From: an uncultured Clostridia bacterium | GTDB lineage: Bacteria; Bacillota; Clostridia; Christensenellales; UBA1242 | DNA: 64,000 nt | Assembly: GCA_930990975.1 (NCBI GenBank) | Contig: CAKNRR010000003.1 | Coordinates: 13,037-77,036 of the forward strand | Direction of reading: 5' to 3' | Shown: positions 7,337 through 62,325 of the stretch, one piece after another | How the letters are laid out: each line of letters begins with the position of its first letter | Numbering within the stretch: the first letter of the stretch is position 1 | Made by a program: the position numbers and the translations under genes | The notes under the pieces: model-generated | Told to the model about the DNA's origin: nothing | The model's database searches: none | The model's input: the letters and a program-made list of their open reading frames with translations, nothing else

Positions 7337-9245
<1,909 letters not shown>

Positions 9246-9253
9246 AATTTATA

Positions 9254-9286
9254 GAAGACAGCTTTAAAAAGGCTGTCTTTTATTTA
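9254..9286 (+). terminator. intrinsic terminator of the collagen-like gene
   Basis: AGACAGC (9256-9262) pairs with GCTGTCT (9272-9278), followed by TTTATTTATT. Confidence 0.6.
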
Positions 9287-9395
9287 TTGACTTTTATTAA
9301 AATTAATGCTAAAATATTTTTGTAAATCAAGATAAATTACGATGTTTTTTATCAATTATCAATACACTTTTATATCATAACTAAAAGGAGCATAA

Positions 9396-16213: not shown

Positions 16214-16492
16214 AATAACCTCTTAATTTTATATGAAATATTATGAAAAAATGACAAAATAATTAAATAATTCATTTTTTTAATATTATTTTAATTAAAA
16301 AATAATATTTTTTTATTTTTTATTCTTTTTATTTTATTTTTTAAAATATTTTTAATGTTTATTTTTTATACTTATGTATATATTAAATATAAATATTTAT
16401 ATATATTCTTATATATATTTCGTCAAAATATTTTGTTTTTTTTCTCTGCTATGTTAAAATCATTATATATGAAATTTATTTCGAGGTGGAAT

Positions 16493-19400: not shown

Positions 19401-22400
19401 TATCAGAAACTTTAAATAACTTCTTTAACATCGGAACTGGCAATATTAAATATGTTTCAGACATCACAATTGCAACAAAAGGACAAAATGAAGGCGAAAT
19501 CTCAACAGGTATTTCAAGTTACAATGGTTATTACCTCTCTGTTGGAATTAACAATGTAACATATATCAAAGATGCACTTTCATCTCAATTTACTAGATAC
19601 CAAGACATCAACAGTTATCAACTTCAATTTATAAATGAAGATAATGAGGCTATTGAAGGTACTTACAAATTCTTATTAAGAGACAATGCAAATACAATCT
19701 CTTATGACAATGAAGAATTCAACTTTAAAAATCATCCTAGTGCTTATCTCACATTTAATGTAACGAGCGATGACTCTAAGCTTACTGTCTATAGAGGCGA
19801 AGCAGAAGGCGAAGGTATGCCTCCTTCACTTGAATGGGCAAGCCACAGCATTACAGGAAACCTATATTATTACACAGAAGATGGCGAAAGAATTTACACT
19901 CATAAACCTTCTTTAGAAGATAGTGATATAGAATTAACAGAAAGCACTATGACTTATAAATTTGCTTACTACACCCCTGTTAATGCAGATGAAAAATTGA
20001 CACTCTCATTTATTCCATTAACAGAAAATGGTTCTGTTCTTGGCTTGGTAATTTTAAAATACTACCCTTATATCAAAGATTATATAAAACTTGATGACGG
20101 AAATTATTATTACTTCTATGATATTTCTGATGAATATCAAGAAATTGAAGTTTATTCTTATTCTGCTGACAATAACTATGAAGCTGGGGAAACTTTGACT
20201 TTTGATATTGTTTTGGGTTCAAGTCAATATCCTAGTGCTGGAAGATATGTTATTGAAAGACAGTATCTTGATTCAGAAGACACAAAAGTTGATCAATACG
20301 ATTATTTCAAACGATATATAACATTTGATGTTGACGATTTTGGTTTAATTAGCGGACTTGAATCAGTAAACAACAAAGATGACGAAAATGGCAGCTCTTC
20401 TCTTGAAAGTATTGTTGGTGGCGATATTCTTCTTAGTATGTATAGTGGCGAAGGCAATTCAAGTATTCAAGTTTCATTCCCTAAATACAACGATTCTGGA
20501 TTGAACTCAGGCTCATTCTATACAAAGGATAGTTTCACTGATGAAAATGAAATTTTAAGTGTTTACTCAGTAGAAAGCAATAAACTCCCTATAAGTTTAT
20601 ATATTCCTCAATATAAATATACTATCAACACCGTTTATGATGAAGCTACAAATAGTTATAGTGTCGTATCAAATAACAATCTTTCTTATTATGGTAACAC
20701 AACAATAAAGCAAGAAGAAAGTGACGGTTTCTGGCACATCTATAGCGAAGGCATTGAAATCTCTGAGCCTGTTGCTACAATGGCTGAAGCTCTTGAAATC
20801 TTAAGTGAAACATCTATAGCTGACTATGAAATTTATGCAGAAGTTCAAGCAGATGTCACTGAAAACGGAAGAAATGTGACAAAACACTATGTAACCAATG
20901 GAAGCACAACAAACGGATATTTGAATCTTTATGAAGTATCAAGTTTGCATGGTGTTCCTGCCCCAGGTGCTACACCTGCTGAACCATTCTACTTGACTGG
21001 TAATTATGTTGTAACTCTATATCAAGCCTATGCTGGTGGAAGTCAAGGAAGTTTCTATAGTGTTTATAAATTTGGTTTTAAAATAACCTCATCAAAACCT
21101 GAATTTACAATCATTGATGCCAATGGGTATCAACTTGGAGGCACAGATGTTAACTCTGGAATTCAAATAGGTAACAACCCTAACGATCCATATACTTATT
21201 ACACAAATTCTGACACCCTTACTATTCAATGGGAAGTGCCTACAAGCGAATATCAAGCTAAAATTGACACTTCTAAAATAGTAATAAACTCTTATCCACA
21301 ACCTACTATACCTTCTGAAATTACACCTGATAATATAATCGTAAATGATGATAACACAATGCAATTTACTCTTGACTGCTCAAACATCATTATTGCCGAT
21401 GGTGGTTATGTTGAAATTACAATGCAATATGAAGGTTATAATAGTGCTTACTACGGTGCTCCAGTTACTAAACGAATTTACTTTGACAGGTCTGCTCCGC
21501 TTGGTAACTTACAAAAACTTATGACAAGCACAGAGCAAGCTACAAATATATTTACTAAGAATTATCAAGAACTTAACATGCGCAGCTATTACAACTATAA
21601 AAACGAAGCTCAAGAAAGTGTATCTATAGATGATATTCCAAACATGAGCTATTCTTACTCAGTAAATTCTGGATACTACAAATATTATAGTTATAATGTA
21701 ACAACCGATTTTGTCAATAAAACCTTGGTTGAAACATTGAATAATGCTTCAAACTTTGTTTATGATACTCAATATATTTATTATAACTATATTCCTGCAA
21801 TTGATTCTTACACTCAAACAGACAAGAATTCACTTTCTGGAAGTCACACTCCTCTTGAACCATCAGGCACTGATGATTTACAATGTGGATATTATGAAAT
21901 TATTGAAATGGATTATGCAGGAAACATGACAGTTTATGTCATTTATATCATAGATTCTATGATTGAAGATGACCAAAACTTAAATGATAATGCTCTTTCT
22001 TATACAAATACACTTCATCCTGAAGAAAACTTTGTAAAATCAAGTGATATTAAAGAAGGATTTAACATCTATTCTAATAGCGGATTTGAACTTAAGTCAT
22101 TAAGCTATCTTTCTGACCCTTGGAGCTTAATTTATATTAAACTTGCAGGACAATCTTCAATTAGATATATGACTTCACCTTGGCTTGAAGATGGTTACAT
22201 TTATAAAATAACTATAAGCTCAACAAGCGTAAACTTTGAACAAGTAACTTTATTATCATTGTTTGAAAATGTTGAGTCTTCAGCAAATAAACATACATTG
22301 ACATTCACTGATAGAATCAACGGACTTTCTTATAACACATACCTTTCAATCATGGATGCATCTATAACCACTCAAAAAGTTGAAGACCCTAACAAAACTT

Positions 22401-30037: not shown

Positions 30038-30328
30038 TTATTTTGCTGTCTTTTCCAAATCTTTTGAGGTTACAGTAGCATCTACTAACAAAACATAATC
30101 TTCATTTTTTGAAGATTTTTTCACTGTTTCAAAATCTGTAGGCAAATTAAAATCAAAATCATATTTTTCTACATAAACAAAATAGGCTTTCAAACACTCT
30201 TTCGCATACAAATAAGCCTCTTCTACTATAGTGCCATCTGTTGTCAATTCCAAATCTGGGAAAAAAACACGATATACACCTTCTTTGTCATCTTTTATAA
30301 ATACTGCAGGATAAATGTAATTTTTCAT
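30038..30328 (-). CDS. HicB-like antitoxin-family protein (orphan)
   Basis: MKNYIYPAVFIKDDKEGVYRVFFPDLELTTDGTIVEEAYLYAKECL matches the HicB N-terminal (RNase-H-like) fold pattern. SD AAGGAG. No HicA-sized ORF in the flanks. Confidence 0.65.
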   Translation of the reverse strand: MKNYIYPAVFIKDDKEGVYRVFFPDLELTTDGTIVEEAYLYAKECLKAYFVYVEKYDFDFNLPTDFETVKKSSKNEDYVLLVDATVTSKDLEKTAK

Positions 30329-30595: not shown

Positions 30596-33325
30596 TCAAC
30601 GATTATCCTTATCCCAACAACAATTTTTATACTTTTTGCCACTACCGCAAGGACATGGATCATTTCTTCCAGCTTTTGGTTTGTCATTATATACAGTTTT
30701 TTGAACTTGCAATTTTTGTTTTTGCTTTTGAGCTGCTCTTTCTTCTGGTGTGAGTTCCTTCCCTGTGAAGATTATTTTAGCAGGCTCTGGTGCTGGAGCT
30801 TGAGGCTCTTGTCTTATTCTAGCATTCAATAGAATTTTACATGTGCTTTCTCTAATTTTCTCAATCATTGCATCAAACATGTCAAATCCTTCCTTCTTAT
30901 ATGCAAGAACTGGGTCTTGTTGACCAAATTGACGAGCAAGAATTTCATCTTTCATGATTTGCATATCTTCAATTTGGCTCATCCAGTTTATGTCAACCAT
31001 TCTAAGAAGAACATTCCTTTCAATATCCTCAAAGTTTATGCCGATTTCTTCCACTTCTTTATGGCGTTCTTCAAATTTTTTGAGAACTATATCAAGCACT
31101 TTTTCTATCACATCTTTTGTATCACACCCTTCAACAAAATCTTCTGTGATTGTGTTGCTGTCCTTATCCAAAAGTCCATTCTCAAGTTCCTTATTAAGTG
31201 CTGCCAAATCCCATTCATAATATGGCTTTTCATCACTTATAATCTTATATACACTTTTTGCAACAATATCTGGGAACATTTTAAGAATTTGGTCGTGGAC
31301 AGGTTCGCCATCCAAAACCTTATTTCTTTCAGAGTAAATGATTTCTCTTTGTTTGTTCATAACATCGTCAAATTGAAGAACTGTCTTTCTTATGCTGAAG
31401 TTTTGCAATTCAATCTTTCGTTGTGATGCCTCAACTTGTTTTGCAACAGTTTTCATTTGTATTGGTGTTGTATCATCTATTTTAAAGAATGCCAAAATCT
31501 TTTTCAATTTTTCAGTAGCAAATCTTTTGAATAAATCATCATCCAAAGACAAGAAGAACACACTTGAACCTGGATCTCCTTGACGACCAGAACGACCACG
31601 AAGCTGATTGTCTATACGGCGTGATTCATGTCTTTCAGTTCCGACAATATGAAGTCCGCCTAAAGCCTTAACCTCTTCTTTTTCCTTATCTGTGATTTCC
31701 TTATGCTTTGTATAAAGCTTGTTGTATTCCTCTCTTGCTATGTTCAATTTTTCATCGTCAACATAGTTAAAAGCTGTTGCGTAAGAAATTTCCTCATCGG
31801 TGTATCCCTTATCTTTCATTTCTTTTTTTGCGATGAATTCAGGGTTTCCACCAAGCAAAATATCAGTACCTCTACCCGCCATGTTGGTTGCTATTGTAAC
31901 TGTGCCTTTTCGACCAGCTTGAGCAACGATTTCGCTTTCTCTTTCATTATTCTTAGCATTTAAAACCTGATGTTTTATTCCTGCATGCTTTAAAGCTCTT
32001 GAAATAAGTTCTGATTTATCAATGTTTATTGTACCAACAAGAACTGGTTGCCCTTTTTCTTGACATTCTTTTATTTCTTCTATTATCGCTTGAATTTTTC
32101 CTTTCTCAGTGATGTACATTATGTCAGGATAGTCAATTCTTTGTTTTGGAAGGTTTGAAGGTATGATAACTACATCCAAATTATAAATAGTTCTAAATTC
32201 GCCTTCTTCTGTCTTTGCTGTACCAGTCATACCAGAAAGCTTTTTGTAAAGTCTGAAGAAGTTTTGGAATGTTATTGTTGCATAAGTTGTGTTTTCATCT
32301 TTGATGTCCACACCCTCTTTTGCTTCTATTGCTTGGTGAAGACCAGAACTAAATCTTCGCCCTGGAGATAAACGACCAGTAAACTCATCGACAATAATAA
32401 CTTCCCCATCTTTTACAATATAGTTTTCATCTATGTGCATGATGAAATTGGCACGCAAAGCATTATTTATATAATGGTTTATTTCAATATTGTTTATATC
32501 TGACAAATTATCAATATGATAGAAAGCCTCTGCCTTGCTTATACCTTTTTCTGTAAGATTGATTTGTTTTGTTTTTATATCAATCTCAACATCCACATCT
32601 TTTTTCAAACTTTTTGCAAACTTTTGTGCAATAGCGTAGCCATCTGTAGATTTTCCACCACGACCACTTATGATAAGAGGTGTTCTTGCTTCATCAATCA
32701 AAATACTGTCGACCTCATCGACTATCGCAAAGTTAAGTCCTCTTTGAACTCGTGCATTTTTATTGTTTGCCATATTATCACGAAGATAATCAAAGCCAAG
32801 TTCGTTGTTTGTTGTATATGTTATATCTGCCCTATAAGCTTTTTTCTTATCTTCATCACTTTGTCCATTTAAAGAAACACCAACAGTAAGACCAAGGAAT
32901 TTATATACCTTACCCATCCATTCAGCGTCACGCTTTGCCAAATATTCATTGACAGTGACCACATGGACACCTTTCCCAGAAATTGCATTCAAGTATGCAG
33001 GAAGTGTCGCCACCAAAGTTTTTCCTTCACCTGTTGCCATTTCAGCAATTCTTCCTTGATGAAGTGCGATCCCACCAAGAATTTGCACATAAAAATGACG
33101 CATATTCAATACTCTTGAAGCGGCCTCTCTTACAACCGCAAATGCGTCTGGCAACAAATCATTCAATGATTCGCCAACATTATATCTATTTTTAAACTCA
33201 TCTGTACAAGCTCTCAATTGCTCGTTTGTATATTCCTTATATTTATCTTCTAAAGCTATGACTTTGTCTGCTATCTTACGAAGTTTTTTGATTTGTGATT
33301 TATTCTCATTGCCAAAAAGTCCCAT
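30596..33325 (-). CDS. secA: preprotein translocase ATPase SecA
   Basis: 909 aa. Walker A MATGEGKTL, DEVDSILIDEARTPLIISG, C-terminal Zn-finger CPCGSGKKYKNCC. Confidence 0.98.
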   Translation of the reverse strand: MGLFGNENKSQIKKLRKIADKVIALEDKYKEYTNEQLRACTDEFKNRYNVGESLNDLLPDAFAVVREAASRVLNMRHFYVQILGGIALHQGRIAEMATGEGKTLVATLPAYLNAISGKGVHVVTVNEYLAKRDAEWMGKVYKFLGLTVGVSLNGQSDEDKKKAYRADITYTTNNELGFDYLRDNMANNKNARVQRGLNFAIVDEVDSILIDEARTPLIISGRGGKSTDGYAIAQKFAKSLKKDVDVEIDIKTKQINLTEKGISKAEAFYHIDNLSDINNIEINHYINNALRANFIMHIDENYIVKDGEVIIVDEFTGRLSPGRRFSSGLHQAIEAKEGVDIKDENTTYATITFQNFFRLYKKLSGMTGTAKTEEGEFRTIYNLDVVIIPSNLPKQRIDYPDIMYITEKGKIQAIIEEIKECQEKGQPVLVGTINIDKSELISRALKHAGIKHQVLNAKNNERESEIVAQAGRKGTVTIATNMAGRGTDILLGGNPEFIAKKEMKDKGYTDEEISYATAFNYVDDEKLNIAREEYNKLYTKHKEITDKEKEEVKALGGLHIVGTERHESRRIDNQLRGRSGRQGDPGSSVFFLSLDDDLFKRFATEKLKKILAFFKIDDTTPIQMKTVAKQVEASQRKIELQNFSIRKTVLQFDDVMNKQREIIYSERNKVLDGEPVHDQILKMFPDIVAKSVYKIISDEKPYYEWDLAALNKELENGLLDKDSNTITEDFVEGCDTKDVIEKVLDIVLKKFEERHKEVEEIGINFEDIERNVLLRMVDINWMSQIEDMQIMKDEILARQFGQQDPVLAYKKEGFDMFDAMIEKIRESTCKILLNARIRQEPQAPAPEPAKIIFTGKELTPEERAAQKQKQKLQVQKTVYNDKPKAGRNDPCPCGSGKKYKNCCWDKDNR

Positions 33326-33490: not shown

Positions 33491-33519
33491 TTGACTAATT
33501 GTGCAAAATATTATAAAAT
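33491..33519 (+). promoter_or_regulatory. sigma-A-type promoter of the 772-aa ORFan
   Basis: -35 TTGACT (33491-33496), 17-nt spacer, -10 TAAAAT (33514-33519). Confidence 0.4.
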
Positions 33520-33567
33520 ATACTAAGTAAAAATTCAGCCAGTTTGATGGCAAAAAAGGAGTTCGTT

Positions 33568-35886
33568 ATGGGAATTTTTTCTAAAATAGGAGAAAAACTT
33601 AAAAATGTTGTAGGCGCTATTAAAAATACTGTCGTTTACAAAAAAGTCGATACTTCAAAAACCATGATCAACAAAGGCGGCAATATTATGTCTGTTGACC
33701 AAAGTGTTAAGGAGAAAAAGAGCCAAATTGCAAGAGAATCAAGAGAACACTTTGAATTAAGTTTCAAAAACAAATCAATTGATGATATTATTGCTTATAT
33801 CAGCGGAGAAAACTTAATCAAAAACTTCAGCAACTCTTCTGAAATCAAAAGGATGAAACGCGACATCGCTGATGCAAACAGAGAAATAAGTCATGACGAT
33901 TCTTTAAATGAAAGAACTCTTGACAACTTATATGGTTTTATGGCTGGTGGACAAAAACCTAATGGAGAAGCTTTTACTGAAGATGAAGTAGCTACTTATT
34001 CAAGAATCGCTGAAAATTGCCAAGCAAGATCAAGAGCCTTATCTTTTGTTAAGGCAAATTTTGCTGCTATTGTAAACAAAGTTGACTTCACTAAAGAAGA
34101 AGACAGAAAGAGCTTTGATAGACTTATGGAAGTTGTTAAAGACTACTGCAAAGTTGCAAACAACTTCTCTGTTGCAGAATTTAGTGCAGCTCAAATTAAT
34201 CCATCACTTGTAGCTAAAGATTCTAGCAACCTTAAAAATGCTTCAAAACTTGCACAAACAAAGACTGACGAAATTGTCATTGATAGAATTCAAAAAGAAA
34301 GTGATACAGCTTTTAGCATCGCCATTTTCGCTAATGGAGATAAAACAAGCGACACAAAAGGTGTTATTGACTATGTGAAAGAATATGATGAAAAAATCCA
34401 AGCTGGTAAAGAATTAACTAAAAATATTAACGACCTTGAAGAAGGTAAAAAACACCTTGCTCAAGAAAATAATCTTTATGCAGCTGGACAAGCTTTCTTA
34501 GATGCTCAAGAGGAGATAGATCCTTATTCAAAAGAAGATACTTTAAGAAGCCAAACTTGGGCTAAACACTTTGGTTTAAACAAGAAAATTCGTGAAAGAC
34601 AAGGCGATTTTCTTGCCCAATTCTATGAAATTGCAAAAAATACCAAGCTTTTCACCGTTGATGACAATTTAGTTGTTAGAGATATTAATGGAAATGAAAT
34701 TCCTGTAACCCTTGATGAAAATGGAAAGGCAAGCGTTGGCAATTTTGAACTTGACATGTTCTCTAATGGAAAAACTCCTGACACAAGAAGCAACCTTGAA
34801 AAATTGATGGATGCAATACAAAGCTACAACTCTAACCCTGAAATCCAAAATCGCCCTGGCACTTTGAAAGTTAAAAGAGATGCTGGCAAAGGCGAAGATG
34901 GACTTATTTATACTGGTCGCCAAGAAAGAATTATGGAATCTGTATTCTTAAAAATGAGAGACTATGCAATTGAACATTTGGATGATGCAGATTGCGTATC
35001 CCCTCTTGATGATTTCTCATTTAAAACTGTAATCCGTTCTTTAAAAACCAAACAAACAACTAATATATACAAAGCAATTTTTGAAGCTCATGCCAAAGAT
35101 CTTAAAAACTTTACATTTAGCAACCTCTCTACCGCTGAAATGAAAGATTTATATGATTTTATAAATGAAAATCAATCTGTTGGAATCAACGCAAGAAAAG
35201 AATTGCAAGATTGGGCAATTGATAACGAATTGATAGAATCATTTACAATTCAAAAGAAAAACAATAAATTAAACAGCATTGTTGACTACATGAAAGATGC
35301 GGCTGTTAATGCAAATAACAACAGAATCAGAAATAGACAAGATGAAAACAATCAACTCGCTGAAGAACTCAATGCTGAACAAACTGAAAAAACTACTGAA
35401 AGAGAGCAAACTTATGCTGGATTAACAGAAGTTAAAAAAGCTCTTGAAGAAATGTTGCCAAAAGTTGAAGCTATAAAAGTTCCTGCAAAAGTAAAAGGTG
35501 TTAAAAATCAAAATTCAAAGAGCAAGAAAGAACTCACTTCTTTAATAAAAGCAATTCTCTCTGATATAGAAAAAATTATGCCAAAATCAGCTGAAGAAAT
35601 TGTTGCTGACACTAAAGAAATTGAACAAGGCGAGACTACCTACACTGATAAACTAGAAAAATTGGTTGAAGAAATAAATTCTTACAACACTCAAGTGCTT
35701 GATGACCTTGCAAAATTGACATCTCAAGACAGAAAAGAAAGAGCTGAGGCAAGAACTAGAATTTATAAAGACTATCTTTCTGCTGAAGATCAAAAAAATT
35801 TGAAAAAATTCATGAATAAAGTTGTTGAAGACATTAAGGAAATTGATGGTTCTGCATTAGCAAATGATGAAACTGAAAGAGAATAA
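33568..35886 (+). CDS. large soluble hypothetical protein (772 aa), K/E/N-rich, partly coiled-coil
   Basis: SD AAGGAG before the ATG at 33568. No TM segment, no signal peptide, no recognisable catalytic motif. Has its own promoter and terminator. Confidence 0.7.
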   Translation: MGIFSKIGEKLKNVVGAIKNTVVYKKVDTSKTMINKGGNIMSVDQSVKEKKSQIARESREHFELSFKNKSIDDIIAYISGENLIKNFSNSSEIKRMKRDIADANREISHDDSLNERTLDNLYGFMAGGQKPNGEAFTEDEVATYSRIAENCQARSRALSFVKANFAAIVNKVDFTKEEDRKSFDRLMEVVKDYCKVANNFSVAEFSAAQINPSLVAKDSSNLKNASKLAQTKTDEIVIDRIQKESDTAFSIAIFANGDKTSDTKGVIDYVKEYDEKIQAGKELTKNINDLEEGKKHLAQENNLYAAGQAFLDAQEEIDPYSKEDTLRSQTWAKHFGLNKKIRERQGDFLAQFYEIAKNTKLFTVDDNLVVRDINGNEIPVTLDENGKASVGNFELDMFSNGKTPDTRSNLEKLMDAIQSYNSNPEIQNRPGTLKVKRDAGKGEDGLIYTGRQERIMESVFLKMRDYAIEHLDDADCVSPLDDFSFKTVIRSLKTKQTTNIYKAIFEAHAKDLKNFTFSNLSTAEMKDLYDFINENQSVGINARKELQDWAIDNELIESFTIQKKNNKLNSIVDYMKDAAVNANNNRIRNRQDENNQLAEELNAEQTEKTTEREQTYAGLTEVKKALEEMLPKVEAIKVPAKVKGVKNQNSKSKKELTSLIKAILSDIEKIMPKSAEEIVADTKEIEQGETTYTDKLEKLVEEINSYNTQVLDDLAKLTSQDRKERAEARTRIYKDYLSAEDQKNLKKFMNKVVEDIKEIDGSALANDETERE

Positions 35887-35888
35887 TT

Positions 35889-35921
35889 TAAACATGACCG
35901 ATAACAAGGTCATGTTTTTTA
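35889..35921 (+). terminator. intrinsic terminator
   Basis: AAACATGACC (35890-35899) pairs with GGTCATGTTT (35908-35917), followed by TTT. Confidence 0.65.
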
Positions 35922-36136
35922 TATGTTTAAGCTCAATGTGTTTTATATTATAATTATTTACCTTTGGTTTAACTTACATCATTTATTTTTATATCTTTAT
36001 ATGTATTAATAACATTCATTTAGGTAAAATTTAAATAAATATTTAGCTAGCTTTTATAAACGCTTCAAAATTTACTTCTTGAATTGAATCCCCCCCTTAT
36101 TTAAAGGAAAATTTTAATGTTTAAATTCCCCTTTAC

Positions 36137-36165
36137 TTGACAATACACTTTTATAATGATATTAT
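36137..36165 (+). promoter_or_regulatory. sigma-A-type promoter of the 1815-aa ORFan
   Basis: -35 TTGACA (36137-36142), 17-nt spacer, -10 TATTAT (36160-36165). Confidence 0.4.
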
Positions 36166-36198
36166 ATATTATAAGTAAAATAATAGTGAGGTAATTTT

Positions 36199-39100
36199 AT
36201 GGTTGAAACAAAAAAACCTAACACAAGATCTGTAGATAACACAGTCTATAGAAGAAATGGAAAAGAAAGAATCAATACTTTGCATCAACATGTCGAAATG
36301 ACAAGCAAAAGGACTTCTAAGCTTTTTGACTTTACAGTTACAGAGCCAACAACCGATGGCTCTAGCACTAAAAAAACATCTGTCATGACTGTTTCACAAA
36401 AGGACAAAAAAACCTATGTGAAAATTTCGCCTGAAATGTTGAAGGAATTTAAAGGACCTAATGGAGTTCCTCTTTTTGATAATGAAACATTAAACAAGGT
36501 TTTTAATGGCGATGGTCTTTTGATTGATAAAAACAGCCAAGGTATAAGTATAAATAGTGTTGGCGACGAAATCATCATTGACATTAAAGGGAAAAATGAA
36601 GGAGAAAACTATAGAATAACAGCTGGACCTACAAACATCTCCCTTGAATATGGAAATGGAGATAATGTCACTCAATATGAATACCACCCTAAAAATCCAG
36701 AAACAGCGATTGACTTGTCTATGAAACGCAGTATTATTGAAAGTATGCTTGACAAAAACAATCCAAACCACAACCTTTTTAATCCTCCAAAACGTGTAAG
36801 AGATGTACCTCAATTCCTTGTTGGTATGTATTTGCAAGATGTAGAAGACAATACAGTTAAACAATTTGGCGATTTTACAATCACTCGTTGCAACTTTGGT
36901 GGAGAAAACTCTTCCCCTTATTGTTTCATTAAGCAAAAAAATGCTAGTGGAAAAGATGAAGTTATCTTATTTGCGAACGGCGGATATCATAAGTGTACCG
37001 GCGAAATTAAAGGACAATATATAAAAGATAAAAACAATAATGAATACTATTTGGCTGTCGGTATAAGATCAGGAACTAAACCATATATACCTATTAAAAT
37101 ACCTATGGTTGATGGCAAGCCTAGTCCAGAATTTGCTGAGGGATTTAAAACTTTAATGGATGGAACAGCTAGAGATGATCAAACCCCTATCCTTGAAGTC
37201 CGTGGTAAAGAAAGAGCTGGGAAAAGCAAAAAACTTGATATTAAAGATGAAGGCATTACTATTGAACATTTGCACTCTTTTGAAATAAAAGATACAAGAG
37301 AATATTCAGATTATCAATTCCAAGTTAAAAGCAAAAAGTTTGATGTTTACGATCAATTTGGTATCACTAGTGAGCGTCCACTTGTTGATCCAGGTCCAGA
37401 TGATGACGGAGATGACTCTGGTGAAAATGGCGGAGGTTCAGGAGATCCTGGTGATTCTGGAAGTTCTGGCGGAACAAATGTTCCTGGCGATGGTGGCGGA
37501 AATCCTCCAACAGACCCAACACAACCTGAAAATCCTCAGCCTGAGAACCCTCAACCTGAAAATCCAGAGCCAGAAGAGCCTGAAGTAGATGAAGCTCAAA
37601 AGAAATTGGATGAACTCAATAAGGCCCGAGAAAAAGAAGCTGAAGAAGCTGAACAAAAGAAATTCGAAGAACAGCAAAAAGCTAAGGGTGAAGCATTTAA
37701 ATCTGGAATGACTTTGGTAAATACGGTTATGGGAAATTCCCTTTCTACTATTGGAGTTTTCCTTATGATTTGCTCAATGATTCCTGGAGTGAATTTTATA
37801 TGTATTCCTGCAGCCATTATGGCTGGCATTGGCTTATTTCAATCAACTTTTGCTGACAAATTGGTATTTAATCCTTATAGAAAGATTAAGCAAAAAGTAA
37901 AAGAAGCTGAAAAATTGCAAGATATTGAATTTGAAGCCAGAGATCAATTCATTGAAAATGAAAGAGAACTCGACAAACTTGTTGCACTTTCTAAAGAAAA
38001 AACTGCTGTTCTTGATAAAATGATGTATGAATCAGCTGAAAATGGTGGAAATAAATTTGCCAAAGAATTCGCTGAAATATTCAATACAAATGGCGTTGGA
38101 TTTATACGCGGTCAAGTTGATGGCGCAAAACAACTTCAAGATATTGGAAATCTTGACAATAGAATCGATATGACCAAAATGCTTGACCAAATTTCTAAAG
38201 CAAAAGATGAAACTCAAAAACAACAACTTATTGAACAATTTAAAACCAACTTTTTCCAAGATTTAGATACAGCAGGACAAGAAAGAGTTGACAATCTTTT
38301 CAGGGCTGAAAATGCTGAAAACCTAAATCAATTTGTAACAGCCTTAAATCAAGCAAACCTTGCCCAATCAAATGAAAGAGCTTTATTTACAACTCAAAGA
38401 GATGCAATTTTAACTGCTGAACAAAATAGGCTTCTATATTTGGCTCGTACAGATAAATTTAGCGAACAACAAAGAGTTACTTATTTTGAAAGATATTCTC
38501 CTGCAATTATTCAAAATATCACTACCCGTCAAAATGGTTCTACAGAAAAATTGAATGAAATTATAAATAGCGTGCCTGAAGCAACGAGAAATAATGCAAT
38601 TATTGAACTTAATAATGCAAGTCAAAAAATGCAAACTCAGGTTGCAAATATTGAAGCACAAGCAAATGAAAATGTTGAAAAACAAAAGAGCATAACCCCT
38701 CTTGTTCAATACAAACAAGCCTTAAGCGCGCTTGCTGATAAAGAAATTTCAACAAGAGAACAATGCTTAGATGCTAGCAAGGATTTCATTAACAACTATA
38801 CCCTTAGCTATTATCAAGGTTATTCTGACAGATTTAAGCAAGGATTGGTTGCAAGTACTAATGGACTTTCAAATGTCAAAGAAAATGATAGTGTAAAAAC
38901 AATAGCTCAACAAATTAATGGCTTTGTTGAAGGTATTTCAGGAGACAAACCTTCTGAAAAAACTCAAAAATTGGCAGAACAACAAAAAGCCATCCAAAAG
39001 ATTATCGAAGACGGCAAATTTGTCGAAGAAATCGGCGACACCTATGTATCTTATCAAGGCTTGAATGATGGCAACACACCTGCTACTGGAAGCCTTGTTG

Positions 39101-41646
39101 CAGATCCTAAGAAAGGAACTAGAAAAAAAGAATTTACTTTGCAAGCTCAAGCTTTGGGCATTGCAAAGAATAGAATCATCGGCTTCATTAAAGAAAAAGA
39201 TAACACAGCTAACGAAACAACTTTGGCTGAATACACTACAGAAAAACTTTTAGAAGAAGTGGCAAAATATTCTGATGCTTCGAAAAACAAATCTGTTCAA
39301 TCATCAATTGACCTTATTAAAGCACATAATAAATATGAAACTTTAAAAAATAGTCTTGATATATCTGATGATTTATACAAAGCTATTACTGGCAGTGATG
39401 TTAAATACGACGCAGCAAAGAAACAATTTATTGTTCATGATTATAAGTCTGATAAAAAAGCAACAAATGCAATTGATGAAGCTGAGGAATATAAGAAGTT
39501 CAACAAATATCCTGCTTTCAGAAAAATGTCTGATAAAGACAAACAAAAAGTTGTAATGATGAGTTTGGGATTGTCTGTTCTTAAAGAAAAAGCCGAATAC
39601 TTCAAAGATCCTACAAGAAAAGTAATTAGTGAGGAAGATTATCAAATCCACATTGACAACTATAATAAGATGGAAAGTTTGCTTGACAAAATCTTGACAG
39701 GAAAGTTAAATTCTGCTTATGACGAACTTGCCATCAGAACTGCCATGGTTGGTGCAGAAAATGTTAACACAAACTATGACGAACAATCTAAAGCGGCAGC
39801 AAGAACATTAATCCACACATTACAAGGTTATAGAACTCTTGATAAAGTATTTGACTCAATGGAATTAAGCGAAGAACAAAAAACAAACATAAAAGCCGAA
39901 GTTTCTCGCAGAGCTAAAGAAACTGGCGAAGTTAACTTCAACAAACTCTTCTCTCGAGTTTTACAAGAGCAATTTGCTGATAAGAAAGTTGACGGAAAAA
40001 CAATTGATGAAATTATGTTTAAACATTTTGATTATGAACTTATTAATTCTTCAAACATTGATAGTCTATGCTCTACTTATGGAATTGCAGCAAAAGATTT
40101 AAAAGAAAACATAATGAGAGCAATGCAAGCCAACCCTAAAATTTCTGTCAAAGAGCAGTTGAATCTTCTTCTTGAAGATGCTATTGAGGGACTTAAAGCT
40201 GAAGGTAAAACACCAAAAGAACTTGCATCTCAAGCTGACATTATTAAAAAAGCTGTTGAAGAACTCTCATCCCCTAAAAATAGAGATTATATTGTTCCTC
40301 AAAAAAGCAAAGATTTTGACGCGTTCGTTAAAGACCTTCAAGCAACATTTGATAAGAGAACTAAGCGTAATCTTGGAGCCACAAGTTTTGAACTTGGTGA
40401 AGCTTTTACAGATAAGGAATTAGCTCGTAAGAAGAAATTAGCAAGAAACGGCGAAAAGGAATATGATGATTATATTGATTTATTCGCTAGCAGAGGTGTT
40501 GCAAGAGAAGAACTTGAAACCGCTTTTGGAAACGCAAAGAGTAAAAAAGAATTCAATGCTGTTATAGATAAGTATATGTCAAGAATTGGAATTGATAAAG
40601 AAGAACTGAAGAAAATTAAAAAACATATGGCTCGCAGCGGAAAAACAAATGAAGTTGATAGAGAATATTACGCTAAAAATAGCAAGCTCAAAGCAATGAG
40701 AAATCTTTTGAATAATCCTAGCCCTGAGCTAAATGAAACTAATATAAAACTTTTGAAAGAATTAGGATTAAGTGAAAAGGTTCTTCAATCTTTGCAAACA
40801 TTACCAACAGCAGAAGAAAAATCAACAAAACTTAAAGAACTTATTGATAAAAATACTATAGCTTTGGATAGAAACTTCTACAAACTCGCATTAGAAGTAA
40901 ACCACCTCGACAATGTTAGAGTGGGAAATACCGAACTTGATAGAAACAATTTGGATGCTAAAGACAAATATATATCTTACCAAAAATCGGCTAGAGAATT
41001 TAATGTTAAAATTAAGACATTGCAAGAATTTATTAAAAACAATCCTGAATGCACATACACTCAAGAAATTATCAATGCCTTTGTCAAAGGTGATGCTGAT
41101 TTCTTAAAAAGACAAGGTATTTCTCTTGATGAATATGAATTTAGCCATCTAGACACAGTTATGTATGATGAACTTGGCATTGATTTAGACTCTCTTGTAG
41201 CTCAAGCTGATGTTTATCCTGATCTTGAAGGGCTTTCTCCAAGAAAGAAAGAAAAATTAAAGAAAAAAATCAGAGATAAAAATCAAAAACTTCTTGAAAA
41301 GTTGGAGAAAAAAGCTAAAGCTATAGCTCCTAAACTTGAAAAAGAGACAAAGAAAAGAGAAGAAATAGCTGACAAGAAAGAAAAAGAAGTTCTTGAGGCT
41401 AAAGAAAAGAACAAGAAAGGTCTTGAAGAAATTAAACCACCTGCTATACTTACAGCCTTCAAATCAATCGGAAATATGCTTAAACGCAGAAAAGAACAAG
41501 AAATTGATGCTCCAGAAGCTGCACGTGCTGCGGCTGAAGCTGAAAGAGCTCGCCAAGCTGAAGCTGCAACTGAGGCTACTGCAGAAACTGAAGCTGAAGC
41601 GACAACTCAAGAGAACGAACATTCTAACGAAGGACGAGATATTTAA
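36199..41646 (+). CDS. giant hypothetical protein (1815 aa): N-terminal globular domain, acidic Gly/Pro-rich linker, central TM hairpin, roughly 1250-aa helical C-terminal region
   Basis: SD GTGAGG. Linker PGPDDDGDDSGENGGGSGDPGDSGSSGG...PTQPENPQPENPQPENPEPEEPE (nt ~37380-37590). Two adjacent hydrophobic helices IGVFLMICSMIPGVNFICIPAAIMAGIGLF (nt ~37750-37850). No N-terminal signal. Ala/Glu-rich C-terminus. Confidence 0.7.
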   Translation: MVETKKPNTRSVDNTVYRRNGKERINTLHQHVEMTSKRTSKLFDFTVTEPTTDGSSTKKTSVMTVSQKDKKTYVKISPEMLKEFKGPNGVPLFDNETLNKVFNGDGLLIDKNSQGISINSVGDEIIIDIKGKNEGENYRITAGPTNISLEYGNGDNVTQYEYHPKNPETAIDLSMKRSIIESMLDKNNPNHNLFNPPKRVRDVPQFLVGMYLQDVEDNTVKQFGDFTITRCNFGGENSSPYCFIKQKNASGKDEVILFANGGYHKCTGEIKGQYIKDKNNNEYYLAVGIRSGTKPYIPIKIPMVDGKPSPEFAEGFKTLMDGTARDDQTPILEVRGKERAGKSKKLDIKDEGITIEHLHSFEIKDTREYSDYQFQVKSKKFDVYDQFGITSERPLVDPGPDDDGDDSGENGGGSGDPGDSGSSGGTNVPGDGGGNPPTDPTQPENPQPENPQPENPEPEEPEVDEAQKKLDELNKAREKEAEEAEQKKFEEQQKAKGEAFKSGMTLVNTVMGNSLSTIGVFLMICSMIPGVNFICIPAAIMAGIGLFQSTFADKLVFNPYRKIKQKVKEAEKLQDIEFEARDQFIENERELDKLVALSKEKTAVLDKMMYESAENGGNKFAKEFAEIFNTNGVGFIRGQVDGAKQLQDIGNLDNRIDMTKMLDQISKAKDETQKQQLIEQFKTNFFQDLDTAGQERVDNLFRAENAENLNQFVTALNQANLAQSNERALFTTQRDAILTAEQNRLLYLARTDKFSEQQRVTYFERYSPAIIQNITTRQNGSTEKLNEIINSVPEATRNNAIIELNNASQKMQTQVANIEAQANENVEKQKSITPLVQYKQALSALADKEISTREQCLDASKDFINNYTLSYYQGYSDRFKQGLVASTNGLSNVKENDSVKTIAQQINGFVEGISGDKPSEKTQKLAEQQKAIQKIIEDGKFVEEIGDTYVSYQGLNDGNTPATGSLVADPKKGTRKKEFTLQAQALGIAKNRIIGFIKEKDNTANETTLAEYTTEKLLEEVAKYSDASKNKSVQSSIDLIKAHNKYETLKNSLDISDDLYKAITGSDVKYDAAKKQFIVHDYKSDKKATNAIDEAEEYKKFNKYPAFRKMSDKDKQKVVMMSLGLSVLKEKAEYFKDPTRKVISEEDYQIHIDNYNKMESLLDKILTGKLNSAYDELAIRTAMVGAENVNTNYDEQSKAAARTLIHTLQGYRTLDKVFDSMELSEEQKTNIKAEVSRRAKETGEVNFNKLFSRVLQEQFADKKVDGKTIDEIMFKHFDYELINSSNIDSLCSTYGIAAKDLKENIMRAMQANPKISVKEQLNLLLEDAIEGLKAEGKTPKELASQADIIKKAVEELSSPKNRDYIVPQKSKDFDAFVKDLQATFDKRTKRNLGATSFELGEAFTDKELARKKKLARNGEKEYDDYIDLFASRGVAREELETAFGNAKSKKEFNAVIDKYMSRIGIDKEELKKIKKHMARSGKTNEVDREYYAKNSKLKAMRNLLNNPSPELNETNIKLLKELGLSEKVLQSLQTLPTAEEKSTKLKELIDKNTIALDRNFYKLALEVNHLDNVRVGNTELDRNNLDAKDKYISYQKSAREFNVKIKTLQEFIKNNPECTYTQEIINAFVKGDADFLKRQGISLDEYEFSHLDTVMYDELGIDLDSLVAQADVYPDLEGLSPRKKEKLKKKIRDKNQKLLEKLEKKAKAIAPKLEKETKKREEIADKKEKEVLEAKEKNKKGLEEIKPPAILTAFKSIGNMLKRRKEQEIDAPEAARAAAEAERARQAEAATEATAETEAEATTQENEHSNEGRDI

Positions 41647-41664
41647 GCAAATTCAAATAAAACA

Positions 41665-41697
41665 AAAAAGTTTAACACATCTTGTGTTAAACTTTTA
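41665..41697 (+). terminator. intrinsic terminator
   Basis: AAAAGTTTAACACA / TGTGTTAAACTTTT 14-bp stem with a 3-nt loop. Confidence 0.6.
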
Positions 41698-41904: not shown

Positions 41905-42999
41905 ATGAAAATTGGTGTTGTTGGCCTTCCTAATGTTGGGAAAAGCACATTATTCAATGCAATAACTAATGCTGGTGCAGAAAGTGCAAACTACCCTTTC
42001 TGCACAATTGAGCCAAATGTCGGCATCGTCGATGTGCCTGATGAGCGTTTGCAAGTTTTGGGCAAACTTTATAATACTCAAAAAATCACTCCTGCTTCAA
42101 TAGAATTTGTTGATATTGCGGGACTGGTTGCAGGAGCAAGCAAAGGTGAAGGACTTGGAAACAAGTTTTTGAGCCATATCCGCGAAGTTGATGCCATTGT
42201 CCATGTTGTAAGATGTTTTGAAAATGAAAAAATTATACATGTAAACGGCAGCATTGATCCTTTAAGAGATATTGAAATCATTAATTTGGAATTGGCTCTT
42301 GCTGACCTTGAACAAGTCAATAAACTTTATGAAAAAAACGCAAAACTTGTTAAAACTGGGGATAAAAGTCTTATCTTGACTGTTAATCTTCTTGAAAGAA
42401 TTAAAAACGCACTTGAAAATAATTTGCCTGCAAGAAGTGTTGCAATTGAAGATGATGAAGAAATCAAGATTATGAAAAATCTTCAACTTTTAACTGCAAA
42501 GCCTGTGATTTATGTTGCAAATATAAGTGAAAATGATATTTCAAAGCCAGAAAACAATTTTGTCAAAGCTGTAAGAGCATTTGCCGAAAAAGAAGGCTCA
42601 AAAGTTATTTCACTTTCTGCCAAGATTGAAGAAGAACTTGCTGGCTTATCCCCTGACGAAAAGGAAATGTTTAAAGAAGAACTTGGAATTAAAGAAAGTG
42701 GTCTTGAAAAATTGGTTGCAACAAGTTATGATTTATTAGGGCTTATGTCTTTCTTAACAGCTGGCGAAAAAGAAGTAAGAGCTTGGACAATCAAGAAAGG
42801 AACTAAGGCACCTCAAGCAGCGGGCAAAATCCACACAGACTTTGAAAAAGGATTTATTAAAGCTGAAGTAGTTTCATATAGTGATTTAGTCGAAGCTGGC
42901 TCTTTCCTTAAAGCAAAAGAAAAAGGAAAAGTTCGAATGGAAGGCAAAGAGTATGTCGTACAAGACGGAGATGTCATGCTGTTTAGATTCAATGTTTAA
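41905..42999 (+). CDS. ychF: ribosome-binding ATPase YchF
   Basis: MKIGVVGLPNVGKSTLFNAIT, YPFCTIEPNVG, C-terminal TGS-like ...VQDGDVMLFRFNV. Confidence 0.97.
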   Translation: MKIGVVGLPNVGKSTLFNAITNAGAESANYPFCTIEPNVGIVDVPDERLQVLGKLYNTQKITPASIEFVDIAGLVAGASKGEGLGNKFLSHIREVDAIVHVVRCFENEKIIHVNGSIDPLRDIEIINLELALADLEQVNKLYEKNAKLVKTGDKSLILTVNLLERIKNALENNLPARSVAIEDDEEIKIMKNLQLLTAKPVIYVANISENDISKPENNFVKAVRAFAEKEGSKVISLSAKIEEELAGLSPDEKEMFKEELGIKESGLEKLVATSYDLLGLMSFLTAGEKEVRAWTIKKGTKAPQAAGKIHTDFEKGFIKAEVVSYSDLVEAGSFLKAKEKGKVRMEGKEYVVQDGDVMLFRFNV

Positions 43000-50086: not shown

Positions 50087-50713
50087 TTACATTTTCTCAA
50101 TGCCGTTATTTTTCTGATAAACTATTTTAGGCAAGATTGTATTGTCTATCTCGTAATATTCATCACTGAGCTTCTCTAAGGCTTCTTTAAGGCTATGGCT
50201 TCTTTTAAACCTTTTCTCTATCTTATCTTCAGGGACATCATGTCCACCCTCTTGCACCCTTTTAGCCACGCGCTGAATATTTACTTTAAAATCTTTTGGA
50301 GAAATAAAAACAGAAACAACTTTATACCCTTGTTTTTTATAGAGCTCAATCAATTCAAGCTTGCTTGGATGTGACAAAACCGTTTCATAAATCACCGCTT
50401 GATTTGTCTTCGCCAATTCTTTAAACAGTCCCATTGTGTAATACATGGCCTGCATATTTCGCTCTTTATCTGAAAGCACATCTTTGAACATTGTCTTGGC
50501 AAAGATGTCTGCATTGACATACTTATGCGAAGAAAGTTGATTGTTTTTAAACATGTTGGCTATCAATGTTGACTTTCCGCTACCATTAGGTCCAGCAACA
50601 ACAAACAACTCTCCTGTTTCGCCCTTGTGCCCTAGACCTTCTTGCAAATACTTGTCTGCCTCGCTGTTTGTCAATATTTCAAAAGTGGATATTATTTTTG
50701 ATATTTCAAACAT
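50087..50713 (-). CDS. zeta-toxin-like / AAA-33 P-loop kinase-fold protein
   Basis: Walker A VAGPNGSGKST, YETVLSHPSK, GGHDVPEDKIEKRFKRS, typical of the zeta-toxin/COG4185 ATPase family. SD AAGGAGGAGGGGG. Confidence 0.55.
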   Translation of the reverse strand: MFEISKIISTFEILTNSEADKYLQEGLGHKGETGELFVVAGPNGSGKSTLIANMFKNNQLSSHKYVNADIFAKTMFKDVLSDKERNMQAMYYTMGLFKELAKTNQAVIYETVLSHPSKLELIELYKKQGYKVVSVFISPKDFKVNIQRVAKRVQEGGHDVPEDKIEKRFKRSHSLKEALEKLSDEYYEIDNTILPKIVYQKNNGIEKM

Positions 50714-51127: not shown

Positions 51128-51204
51128 CGCGGGATAGAGCAGCTCGGAAGCTCGTCGGGCTCATAACCCGAAGGTCGTTGGTTCAAATCCAACTCCCGCA
51201 ACCA
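51128..51204 (+). tRNA. initiator tRNA-fMet (anticodon CAT), CCA encoded
   Basis: CGCGGG...CCCGCAACCA with the C1:A72 mismatch. Anticodon stem with three G:C pairs, GGGCTCATAACCC. Near-identical to the E. coli initiator core. Confidence 0.92.
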
Positions 51205-56785: not shown

Positions 56786-57225
56786 TAAATTAAATTTAGC
56801 AATATTCTTATTTTACAATGCAATTAATTTAAATAATTCAAAGTTAAAATAAAAATATAAGATTATGGAAGAGAAATCCCCATAAAAAAATTGCTAAAAA
56901 ACTTATTGACACTTTTGACAAACAATCTCAAATACTATGTAGTGAAAAATGCTTGAACTTATTAAAGAGTTTTTTAAATATTATAATGTCAAAAGCAATG
57001 AAAACAACCAAGATAAACTTGAAATAGTTAAAGCAAACATCATTGAAAAAACTGCCACTATTAATAACTGCTGAGCAAAATAAACTTTTGTCTGCAAGTT
57101 GATGAAATGATGGATAGTTTAAGCGTGATGCAAAACAAACTGCAAAAATTGTTTTAAGAATTATGAAAATAAAAATCAAATGTTTTTTAAAAATTACACC
57201 TTTAAAACATAAATAGGAGCGAAAA

Positions 57226-62308: not shown

Positions 62309-62325
62309 TGTGGAAATGTGGATAA
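62309..62325 (-). promoter_or_regulatory. DnaA-box pair 1 (imperfect plus perfect)
   Basis: TGTGGAAATGTGGATAA. 62317-62325 is the reverse complement of the consensus TTATCCACA (9/9). 62309-62317 matches 7/9. Confidence 0.7.

Follow-up and report, generated by a model that had tools for sequence, protein, structure and literature searches.

Analysis of a 64,000-nucleotide (nt) stretch of contig CAKNRR010000003.1 from an uncultured Clostridia bacterium, the whole of which is called the window below, revealed a gene between secA and ychF whose product, a protein of 1815 amino acids (aa), represents an undescribed family of giants of approximately 1350-2700 aa. The encoding gene is chromosomal and fixed in a single narrow clade of animal-gut Clostridia, which are uncultured and have a low guanine plus cytosine (GC) content. 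In the region studied (33491-41697) this open reading frame (ORF), ORF-B (36199-41646, plus strand; product B), follows a smaller one, ORF-A (33568-35886, plus strand; product A, 772 aa). Both genes are real, selected, vertically inherited and positionally fixed; no homologues in described families were detectable, and the architecture of B is conserved across its relatives. The assignment of ORF-A rests on orthologues found in the same position in a subclade and on the ratio of nonsynonymous to synonymous substitution rates (dN/dS), and that of ORF-B on its relatives and dN/dS.

A family of giant proteins restricted to one clade

With the N-terminal domain (N-domain) and residues 480-1150 of B as the query, phmmer was run exhaustively against 1.84 billion representative proteins and identified 42 relatives at an expectation value (E) of 1e-3 or lower, 36 of them at 1e-10 or lower, and nearly all of these proteins were 1350-2700 aa long. 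Word-indexed searches returned just a handful. An earlier interpretation of this DNA made without database searches (the sequence-only reading) had called the genes lineage-specific, and these numbers bear it out. Six loci were found in a scan of 185,579 species genomes, all assigned to 'uncultured Clostridia bacterium', and one member is named 'hypothetical protein [Clostridia bacterium]' at NCBI. The exact window protein is present on 35 contigs. No relatives of A or B were present in IMG/VR (2.9 million viral contigs).

B adjoins a divergent secA and/or directly precedes ychF in all of the approximately 20 loci whose contig reaches the neighbours (L001, L003-L016, L019, L020 and L022-L024). 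This placement holds even in relatives that are 22-25% identical to B, and the order of genes from nusG to metG is also conserved around it. In the window the divergent left neighbour secA (30596-33325, minus strand) serves in every relative as the conserved landmark of the locus, recognised by its translation and by the Pfam SecA domains of the syntenic genes, and ychF (41905-42999, plus strand) is the conserved neighbour on the right.

The family is defined here by a beta-rich N-domain, an acidic low-complexity linker, a single hydrophobic hairpin of 31-46 aa with a P/T-G turn, a juxtamembrane motif, a helical C-terminal region of 1000-1650 aa and the position between secA and ychF, and all of these are found in the window protein. 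An N-terminal hydrophobic segment was absent from, and the hairpin present in, each of the 34 long members; other hydrophobic clusters were absent in 33 of them, the remaining one having a second short cluster. In the family alignment the conserved P/T-G turn is followed by a Gly/Ala-rich second arm, then by FADKxxFxPY(K/R)K and an acidic stretch, and small-residue packing motifs can be seen in the hairpin. The region N-terminal to it varies from 227 to 1082 residues, and some relatives have a reduced N-domain or one that does not align; the C-terminal part is steadier (1030-1650 residues).

Two distant members, P0031 (L012, 4919-13024) and P0025, carry confident BspA-type leucine-rich repeats (LRR_5, PF13306) at the extreme N-terminus, with no signal peptide. 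In the distant members acidic linkers stand between these repeats and the N-domain of the family, and the presence of the repeats suggests domain capture from neighbouring surface-protein genes. Pfam domains other than LRR_5 were not detected in the 14 family members scanned.

Domain architecture of ORF-B

B contains exactly one hydrophobic cluster (residues ~506-552), with a maximum Kyte-Doolittle hydropathy over 19 residues (KD19) of 2.23, and has no N-terminal hydrophobic segment. Residues 1-390 (36199-37368) constitute a globular N-domain. The AlphaFold2 (AF2) model of this domain, built from a five-sequence alignment, is mostly beta with approximately 28 strands (predicted local distance difference test, pLDDT, 76.8; predicted template modelling score, pTM, 0.76). 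The sequence-only reading had placed a domain of about 390 aa here, which stands; its description as mixed alpha/beta does not, since the predicted fold is predominantly beta. A GxxxxGKS string resembling a Walker A motif (residues ~336-343) occurs in the window protein alone and is not conserved in orthologues, so it was discarded. Cysteines C231, C242 and C266 of the N-domain are conserved in close relatives and not family-wide; the whole of B contains seven cysteines and not a single tryptophan in 1815 residues.

The N-domain is followed by an acidic low-complexity linker of Gly, Pro, Asp and Glu (residues 391-470, 37369-37608), evident from its composition (20% Pro, 19% Gly, 26% Asp+Glu) and from the alignment of orthologues, among which its length ranges from ~75 to 350 aa. 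Its C-terminal end reads QPENPQPENPQPENPEPEEPE. Next come a K/E-rich helix (residues 471-505, 37609-37713), indicated by composition and by helix H2-55 of the AF2 model, and the hydrophobic helical hairpin (residues ~506-552, 37714-37854). The latter has two short arms, the second of them Gly/Ala-rich, and its assignment draws on KD19, on conservation in the family and on the helix-turn-helix predicted by AF2. Composition, KD19 and AF2 thus agree with the order linker, K/E-rich helix and single hairpin proposed from sequence alone. The juxtamembrane motif FADKLVFxPYRKIK and the acidic EFExRDQFIENE after it (37855-37968) form the most conserved stretch of the family and contain invariant alignment columns.

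The rest of the protein includes a conserved all-alpha core (residues 559-1150, 37873-39648), with long helices and one small beta element in the AF2 model, and further on a C-terminal third (residues 1251-1815, 39949-41643) made up of a K-rich region and an Ala/Glu tail (residues 1701-1815: 21% Glu, 19% Ala, 17% Lys), which is hypervariable within the species. Modelling of residues 471-1150 from a 35-sequence alignment gave an all-alpha structure with a pLDDT of 82, mostly 85-95 past the hairpin. In this model a 54-residue helix runs continuously from the K/E-rich region into arm 1, the hairpin turns at IPGVN, arm 2 has 16 residues and the chain breaks at FADKLVFNP; a series of long helices follows, several of 52-54 residues, with the small beta element near residues 1068-1093. 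No internal repeats were detected in B by hhalign between segments of the family profile (best probability 27%). This indicates that the C-terminal region consists of unique helical domains, which sets it apart from both a simple coiled coil and an array of the spectrin type, and a spectrin-like or repeat-array model of B was dropped for the same reason. Of what had been read from the sequence, then, approximately 1250 aa of helix-type sequence and the Ala/Glu tail were confirmed, and the simple coiled coil gave way to helical bundles predicted with high confidence.

Searches against known families and folds

Comparison of A and B with Pfam, NCBIfam, PHROGs and PADLOC produced nothing but sub-threshold noise. 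Searches of the PDB by sequence (phmmer) and with the family profile gave best E values of 0.05-0.9. With Foldseek, the N-domain model had no match at E<=0.001 in the PDB or BFVD (best 0.017 and 0.037), with template modelling scores below 0.15, and the model of residues 471-1150 had none at E<0.2 in the PDB. Neither model had a match at E<0.01 or with a template modelling score above 0.15, and weak top matches of Foldseek, among them rotavirus VP4, the phage phi11 receptor-binding protein, PCNA, MscK and importins, were dismissed as noise. A full-text literature search returned no description of such a protein. By the tests run here, the family is outside all described families and folds.

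Confident matches to tape-measure or SMC-like proteins, which the sequence-only reading had named as grounds for giving up its interpretation, were looked for and none was found. SMC/Rad50-like ATPases have an N-terminal Walker A and a C-terminal Walker B/signature motif on either side of a hinged, antiparallel coiled coil. B was rejected as a protein of this type: SMC_N and AAA models did not match, the GxxxxGKS string is not conserved and the N-domain is beta-rich.

Selection and within-species variation

Substitution rates were estimated against the relative L010, whose SecA, A and B are 99.8%, 88.6% and 88.4% identical to those of the window. The dN/dS was 0.23 for A and 0.16 for B, which upholds the earlier statement that reading frames of such length did not arise by chance. 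Within B the ratio was 0.09 in the N-domain, 0.07 in the hairpin and core and 0.12-0.14 further on, and approximately 0.9 in the linker, where identity was 52% as against ~90% in the rest of the protein. These regional values indicate that the folded parts are under clear purifying selection and that the linker is constrained in composition alone.

Across the loci, SecA was 79-100% and YchF 84-99% identical to the window proteins, whereas identity fell to 22-36% for B and to 23-27% for A. The clade is therefore narrow, and A and B are among its fastest-evolving genes.

Variation within the species was assessed in 12 conspecific variants of B, 94-99% identical. Variable sites made up 1-6% of residues 1-1250 and 14-23% of residues 1251-1815, and small indels were found at residues 1550-1556 and 1780-1794. 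In comparison with strain L011, dS of B rose from 0.02-0.04 to 0.26 in the C-terminal third, where dN/dS was 0.13-0.16. Polymorphism in the C-terminal third is thus 3-5 times higher than in the remainder of B, and dS against L011 is approximately tenfold higher there. A jump of dS combined with a low dN/dS points to imported divergent alleles, that is to recombination, and not to relaxed or positive selection.

Cellular location of ORF-A and ORF-B

Four independent lines of evidence favour a cytoplasmic location of A and of both large parts of B, as judged from their sequences: no signal peptide in any of the 34 long members, the geometry of the hairpin, its positive flanks and a cytoplasmic composition. 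A two-helix hairpin puts both of its flanks on the same side of the membrane. The flanks carry a net positive charge downstream of the hairpin in 26 of 33 members and upstream of it in 19 of 33. The arms comprise approximately 15-20 hydrophobic residues each. Overall, the membrane topology predicted for B is moderately supported.

The composition of A and of every domain of B (29-36% K+R+D+E, 46% in the Ala/Glu tail of B; 24-33% S+T+N+Y+G) matches that of SecA, YchF, MetG and GyrA/B encoded in the window. By comparison, signal-peptide proteins of the clade, represented by a neighbouring 2904-aa protein, two LRR_5 proteins and one Flg_new protein, contain 15-18% K+R+D+E and 40-44% S+T+N+Y+G. 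Separate signal-peptide LRR_5 genes were also seen near the locus in L001, L007 and L022. The sequence-only reading had stated that neither protein has a signal peptide, which was the case for A, for B and for all 34 members, and had placed both large domains of B in the cytoplasm, which is plausible given the single hairpin, its weakly positive flanks and the composition.

ORF-A and its relationship with ORF-B

A is rich in K, E, N, A and D. It has no transmembrane-like window (maximum KD19 0.88) and no N-terminal hydrophobic segment, in keeping with its earlier description as soluble. Alignment of the orthologues and the hydrophobic moment delineated an N-terminal amphipathic segment, MG-F/L-x-x-I-x-x-K (33571-33624, plus strand), as a candidate membrane-targeting helix. 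M1, I7 and K10 are invariant and Gly2 is present in six of seven sequences. The hydrophobic moment of the segment was 0.48-0.60 in four of five orthologues and 0.04-0.17 in L001, and in the window protein it was in the top 5% of 18-mers. The segment resembles the membrane-targeting helices of SepF or MinD, and by this analogy A may bind the membrane.

Family and PDB searches with A gave no match. Its single weak PHROG match (head-tail joining, E 2e-4), which covers 48 residues of K/E-rich helix, was judged compositional. The possibility that A is a paralogue of B was rejected by BLASTP and hhalign, and A was not found fused into B in P0031, the longest B protein from a locus lacking A and the only one examined for this.

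Orthologues of A, 23-27% identical and at the same position, were found in L001, L004, L005, L007, L008 and L017-L021, and A is also present in L003, L010 and L011. In all 11 of the A-carrying loci with enough contig, B lies directly downstream of A. A is absent in L006, L012-L016, L022 and L023/L024. In at least eight of these loci, representing six or seven distinct relatives (L006, L012-L016, L023/L024), nothing lies between secA and B or between B and ychF; in L022 an unrelated 173-aa gene occupies the place of A. L006 lacks A despite a SecA 88% identical to that of the window. In genomes without A the gap between B and ychF is 73-158 bp, so that co-transcription is possible. Because B is present at all loci and A in a subclade only, B is ancestral and fixed, and A was either added later or lost more than once. 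The two genes had been regarded as a pair: this holds within the subclade, and they are not an obligate pair. The constant position of A directly upstream of B when present, together with its conserved N-terminal amphipathic segment, makes A a candidate partner of B, although such a partnership is at present weakly supported.

Gene signals of the ORF-A/ORF-B region

Inspection of the region confirmed two intact consecutive genes of 772 and 1815 aa, each with its own promoter-like site and terminator, as had been read from the sequence. A candidate sigma-70-like promoter of ORF-A, TTGACT-17-TAAAAT, is located at 33491-33519 (plus strand) and was identified from its consensus match alone (10/12). 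ORF-B is preceded by a promoter-like site, TTGACA-17-TATTAT, at 36137-36165 (plus strand), which matches the consensus at 11 of 12 positions, carries the TG of an extended -10 element and is the best-scoring site in the whole 9-kb region. The total number of promoter-like sites in the region was no higher than expected from shuffled sequence; it is thus the placement alone that speaks for these two sites. Hairpins resembling intrinsic terminators lie 3′ of ORF-A (35890-35917, plus strand) and 3′ of ORF-B (41666-41696, plus strand).

Both genes have their own ribosome-binding sites. The ATG of ORF-A is preceded by AGGAG 6 nt upstream; an alternative TTG start at 33544, eight codons upstream of the ATG, is unlikely, because of this AGGAG and because the homologues begin with MG(L/F/I). 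Together the two genes occupy approximately 12% of the window. Their GC content (32-35%) equals that of the flanks. Beyond ychF lie genes for Mini-RNase III, a SpoU/TrmH methyltransferase, a SigH-like sigma factor and metG.

Other features of the window

GC skew and AT skew both change sign at ~33-34 kb of the window, where gene orientation diverges: secA and the ribosomal genes run leftward, and A, B and ychF rightward. A replication origin in the divergent intergenic region between secA and A, suggested by this change, was rejected as no cluster of DnaA boxes was present in the intergenic regions, and for that reason the skew is probably an effect of gene orientation and does not mark oriC. 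Elsewhere, gyrB and gyrA are located at 54683-59859 and two perfect DnaA boxes at 62317 and 62412.

Between secA and rpmG lies a gene for a 96-aa HicB-like antitoxin-fold protein (30038-30328, minus strand). Relatives (L010-L014 and L023) keep genes of 87-96 aa at this site, and no adjoining HicA partner was seen. A gene for a 208-aa Zeta-toxin/AAA_33-like kinase (50087-50713, minus strand), also found in L011, adjoins tRNA-Met (51128-51204) and is a possible toxin-antitoxin or UNAG-kinase-type element.

The GC content of the window peaks at 40.5% in 8001-10000, as against ~30% elsewhere. Inside this peak a 429-aa protein with collagen triple-helix repeats is encoded (7956-9245, plus strand), which could form a BclA-like surface filament or be phage-derived; a long antisense ORF (7337-8482) overlapping its gene is probably a by-product of the GXY repeats.

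The neighbouring 2904-aa protein mentioned above is the product of a second giant orphan ORF (16355-25069, plus strand). It is rich in S, Y, N and T and has an N-terminal hydrophobic anchor or signal (~52-75) and a C-terminal transmembrane segment (~2867-2890), and it is probably a surface protein. It had no match in Pfam or PADLOC and shows no relationship with A or B. In L013 and L023/L024, homologues of 2790-2869 aa are encoded at the corresponding place upstream of rplA, and fragments were found in L004 and L006.

Discussion

The data could be explained by B being a membrane-tethered giant that serves as an organising platform or hub, with A joining it at the membrane. This is the explanation we favour, and we offer it as the best placed of several and not as a probable one. 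In it, B would be anchored in the cytoplasmic membrane by one short hairpin, with its two arms of ~15-20 residues, Pro-Gly turn and Gly/Ala-rich arm 2, so that both large parts would be left in the cytoplasm. A beta-rich head, extended by LRR in some relatives, would sit on a flexible acidic tether of variable length, and a helical platform of ~1250 aa would begin at the strongly conserved juxtamembrane segment. The head and the platform would offer two interaction surfaces, the Gly/Ala-rich arm 2 might allow lateral packing of several copies, and B would serve to recruit other proteins to the inner membrane face or to position them there. A would join B at the membrane by means of its own N-terminal amphipathic helix. 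The LRR_5 additions, the variable tether and the large, confidently predicted helical core are what suggest an interaction platform.

A scaffold or hub role of B is itself a tentative assignment, which follows from the architecture by analogy with HubP/FimV, EzrA and ZipA. HubP of Vibrio and FimV of Pseudomonas are, like B, very large, membrane-anchored, highly acidic and fast-evolving, contain low-complexity regions and serve as cytoplasmic recruitment platforms. However, they possess an N-terminal, periplasmic LysM domain, a single transmembrane helix and the FimV C-terminal motif, none of which was found in B (Pfam, NCBIfam); B has a mid-protein hairpin instead and belongs to a Gram-positive-type lineage, so that the analogy is architectural only. 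EzrA, a regulator of division in Firmicutes, and ZipA, a tether of FtsZ, are also membrane-anchored helical proteins of the cytoplasm, and in ZipA a globular domain is carried at the inner membrane face on a flexible Pro-rich (Pro/Gln-rich) tether, as in B. Both have one N-terminal transmembrane helix, which B lacks, and are 330-570 aa long. B did not match their Pfam models, had no match to a PDB fold at E<0.2 and showed no detectable repeats, spectrin-like or other.

For the membrane anchor, comparable pairs of hydrophobic helices, joined by a very short turn so that the two flanking domains lie on one side of the membrane, occur in chlamydial Inc proteins (with their bilobed hydrophobic domain), reticulons, caveolin and the 'paddle' of bacterial dynamin-like proteins. 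Short arms, as in such hairpin-anchored proteins, are compatible with wedge-like insertion; none of these proteins is homologous to B. Inc proteins are secreted effectors, unlike B as pictured here, and dynamin-like proteins have an N-terminal GTPase, whereas B has a beta-rich N-domain and neither a Dynamin_N/GTPase match nor a conserved P-loop, and is similar only in the layout of a hairpin between helices.

The sequence-only reading had compared the pair with the cytoskeletal proteins HMW1, HMW3 and P65 of Mycoplasma pneumoniae, which share with B acidic Pro-rich segments, long helical regions and restriction to one lineage. This comparison could not be sustained. The likeness is one of composition alone; these proteins have no membrane hairpin, the host here is of Clostridium type and not a mollicute, and no Pfam family, those of Mycoplasma cytadherence included, matched B even at E=0.01 (the comparison was by profile and not pairwise). 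The reading of A and B as a cytoskeletal filament is unsupported.

Several points weigh against the organising platform. The scaffold is an argument from architecture, and no homology backs any function; the N-domain model, moreover, was built on only five sequences. As to topology, the positive-inside signal of the upstream flank is weak, and the shortness of the hairpin arms makes a monotopic, wedge-like insertion as possible as a full double pass. BspA-type LRR_5 repeats, present in two distant members, are known mostly from surface proteins. Several genomes lack A, so A cannot be essential to the function of B. The dN of B is ~70 times that of secA (0.064 versus 0.0009), and the C-terminal third bears the signature of a within-species recombination mosaic, a pattern that is less typical of housekeeping scaffolds than of surface-exposed proteins or of proteins in conflict with phage or host. 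The earlier expectation of a housekeeping rather than mobile origin is therefore borne out in part: the genes are chromosomal and vertically inherited, as seen from the fixed secA/ychF locus and from IMG/VR, where relatives were not found, and a plain housekeeping scaffold does not obviously account for the fast evolution and C-terminal mosaicism of B.

A more elaborate proposal would accommodate this mosaicism. B could be the core of an undescribed membrane organising or cytoskeletal system built from folds that lack known relatives, in which the exchange of the C-terminal third by recombination reflects conflict (the protein being targeted or sensed by phages, for instance) or strain-specific cell architecture, and A would be a recently recruited peripheral-membrane partner. 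We regard this combination as somewhat unlikely.

Alternatively, B might be exposed at or released from the cell surface by non-classical export, as an adhesin or as an antigen facing the host or phages, with the head and linker spanning the wall and the C-terminal third diversifying. The LRR_5 repeats at the N-terminus of distant members would fit, as would the very fast evolution relative to the neighbours and a hypervariable C-terminal third whose raised dS suggests imported alleles. The Pro/Gly-rich linker also recalls the wall-spanning segments of Gram-positive surface proteins, which such linkers resemble. Nevertheless, a signal peptide or N-terminal anchor was found in none of the 34 members, and since a hairpin leaves the two ends of B on one side of the membrane, export of more than 1700 aa would have to proceed without a signal. 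The clearly cytoplasmic composition contrasts with that of the signal-peptide proteins of the clade, its LRR_5 proteins included, and dN/dS in the variable third (0.12-0.16) reveals purifying and not positive selection. Surface exposure is thus unlikely. The narrower case of a Sec-exported, BspA-like LRR adhesin was rejected on the absence of an N-terminal hydrophobic segment in all 34 members, the cytoplasm-like composition and the confinement of LRR_5 to two distant members: P0031 and P0025 share these repeats with BspA-type proteins, B of the window has none, and typical LRR_5 proteins of the clade differ from B in having signal peptides and a very different composition.

The same fast evolution and C-terminal mosaic could be expected if B took part in genetic conflict as a sensor or effector, for instance in abortive infection or other phage defence; its variable C-terminus would then recognise invader proteins and its hairpin would act on the membrane; giant size together with a membrane-active element occurs in some defence proteins. 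We consider this quite improbable. Defence genes are typically accessory and sporadically distributed, whereas every B-carrying contig examined has the gene in the same core locus, over ~20% divergence of SecA, possibly co-transcribed with ychF. NTPase, nuclease or other effector domains were not found (Pfam, NCBIfam), and the Walker-A-like string is not conserved. Membership of a known anti-phage system was rejected because neither A, B nor the 2904-aa ORF had a match in PADLOC-DB.

The invariable proximity of B to a divergent secA and to ychF, which lies on the same strand and 73-158 bp away where A is lacking, together with a membrane hairpin bearing small-residue packing motifs, raises the question of whether B works with SecA and YchF, as a membrane tether for translating ribosomes or the secretion machinery or as a membrane-shaping organiser of secretion sites. 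However, the whole nusG-metG region is syntenic, so adjacency tells little about function, and B of the window has its own promoter-like site and terminator. Furthermore, partners of a conserved SecA (79-100%) would not be expected to fall to 22-36% identity. A role of this kind is very unlikely.

Finally, the idea of the pair as a remnant of a prophage or mobile element (tape-measure-like or SMC-like) is effectively refuted: the length, helical content and internal hydrophobic segment of B are superficially those of a tape-measure protein and A has its one weak PHROG match (head-tail joining, E 2e-4, 48 residues), but there are no relatives among the 2.9 million viral contigs and no significant PHROG or Pfam match of B, whose neighbours are secA, ychF and ribosomal genes in all loci, no phage genes were seen nearby, the surroundings do not differ in GC content, and the locus is fixed between core genes in ~20 loci and under purifying selection.

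A 5.4-kb gene kept under purifying selection over a long divergence implies that the cell has a use for B. If B is indeed a membrane-tethered organiser, it would represent a new way in which Firmicutes organise the inner membrane face, as well as two new folds; if it should instead be exposed at the surface without a signal peptide, an unrecognised export route would be implied. A fixed core position combined with 22-36% identity, at a SecA identity of 79-88%, and with mosaicism at the strain level is uncommon among proteins that appear to be cytoplasmic, and might uncover a new interface at which gut bacteria adapt or are in conflict. As the organism recurs in many public samples, B is a tractable target in microbial 'dark matter'.

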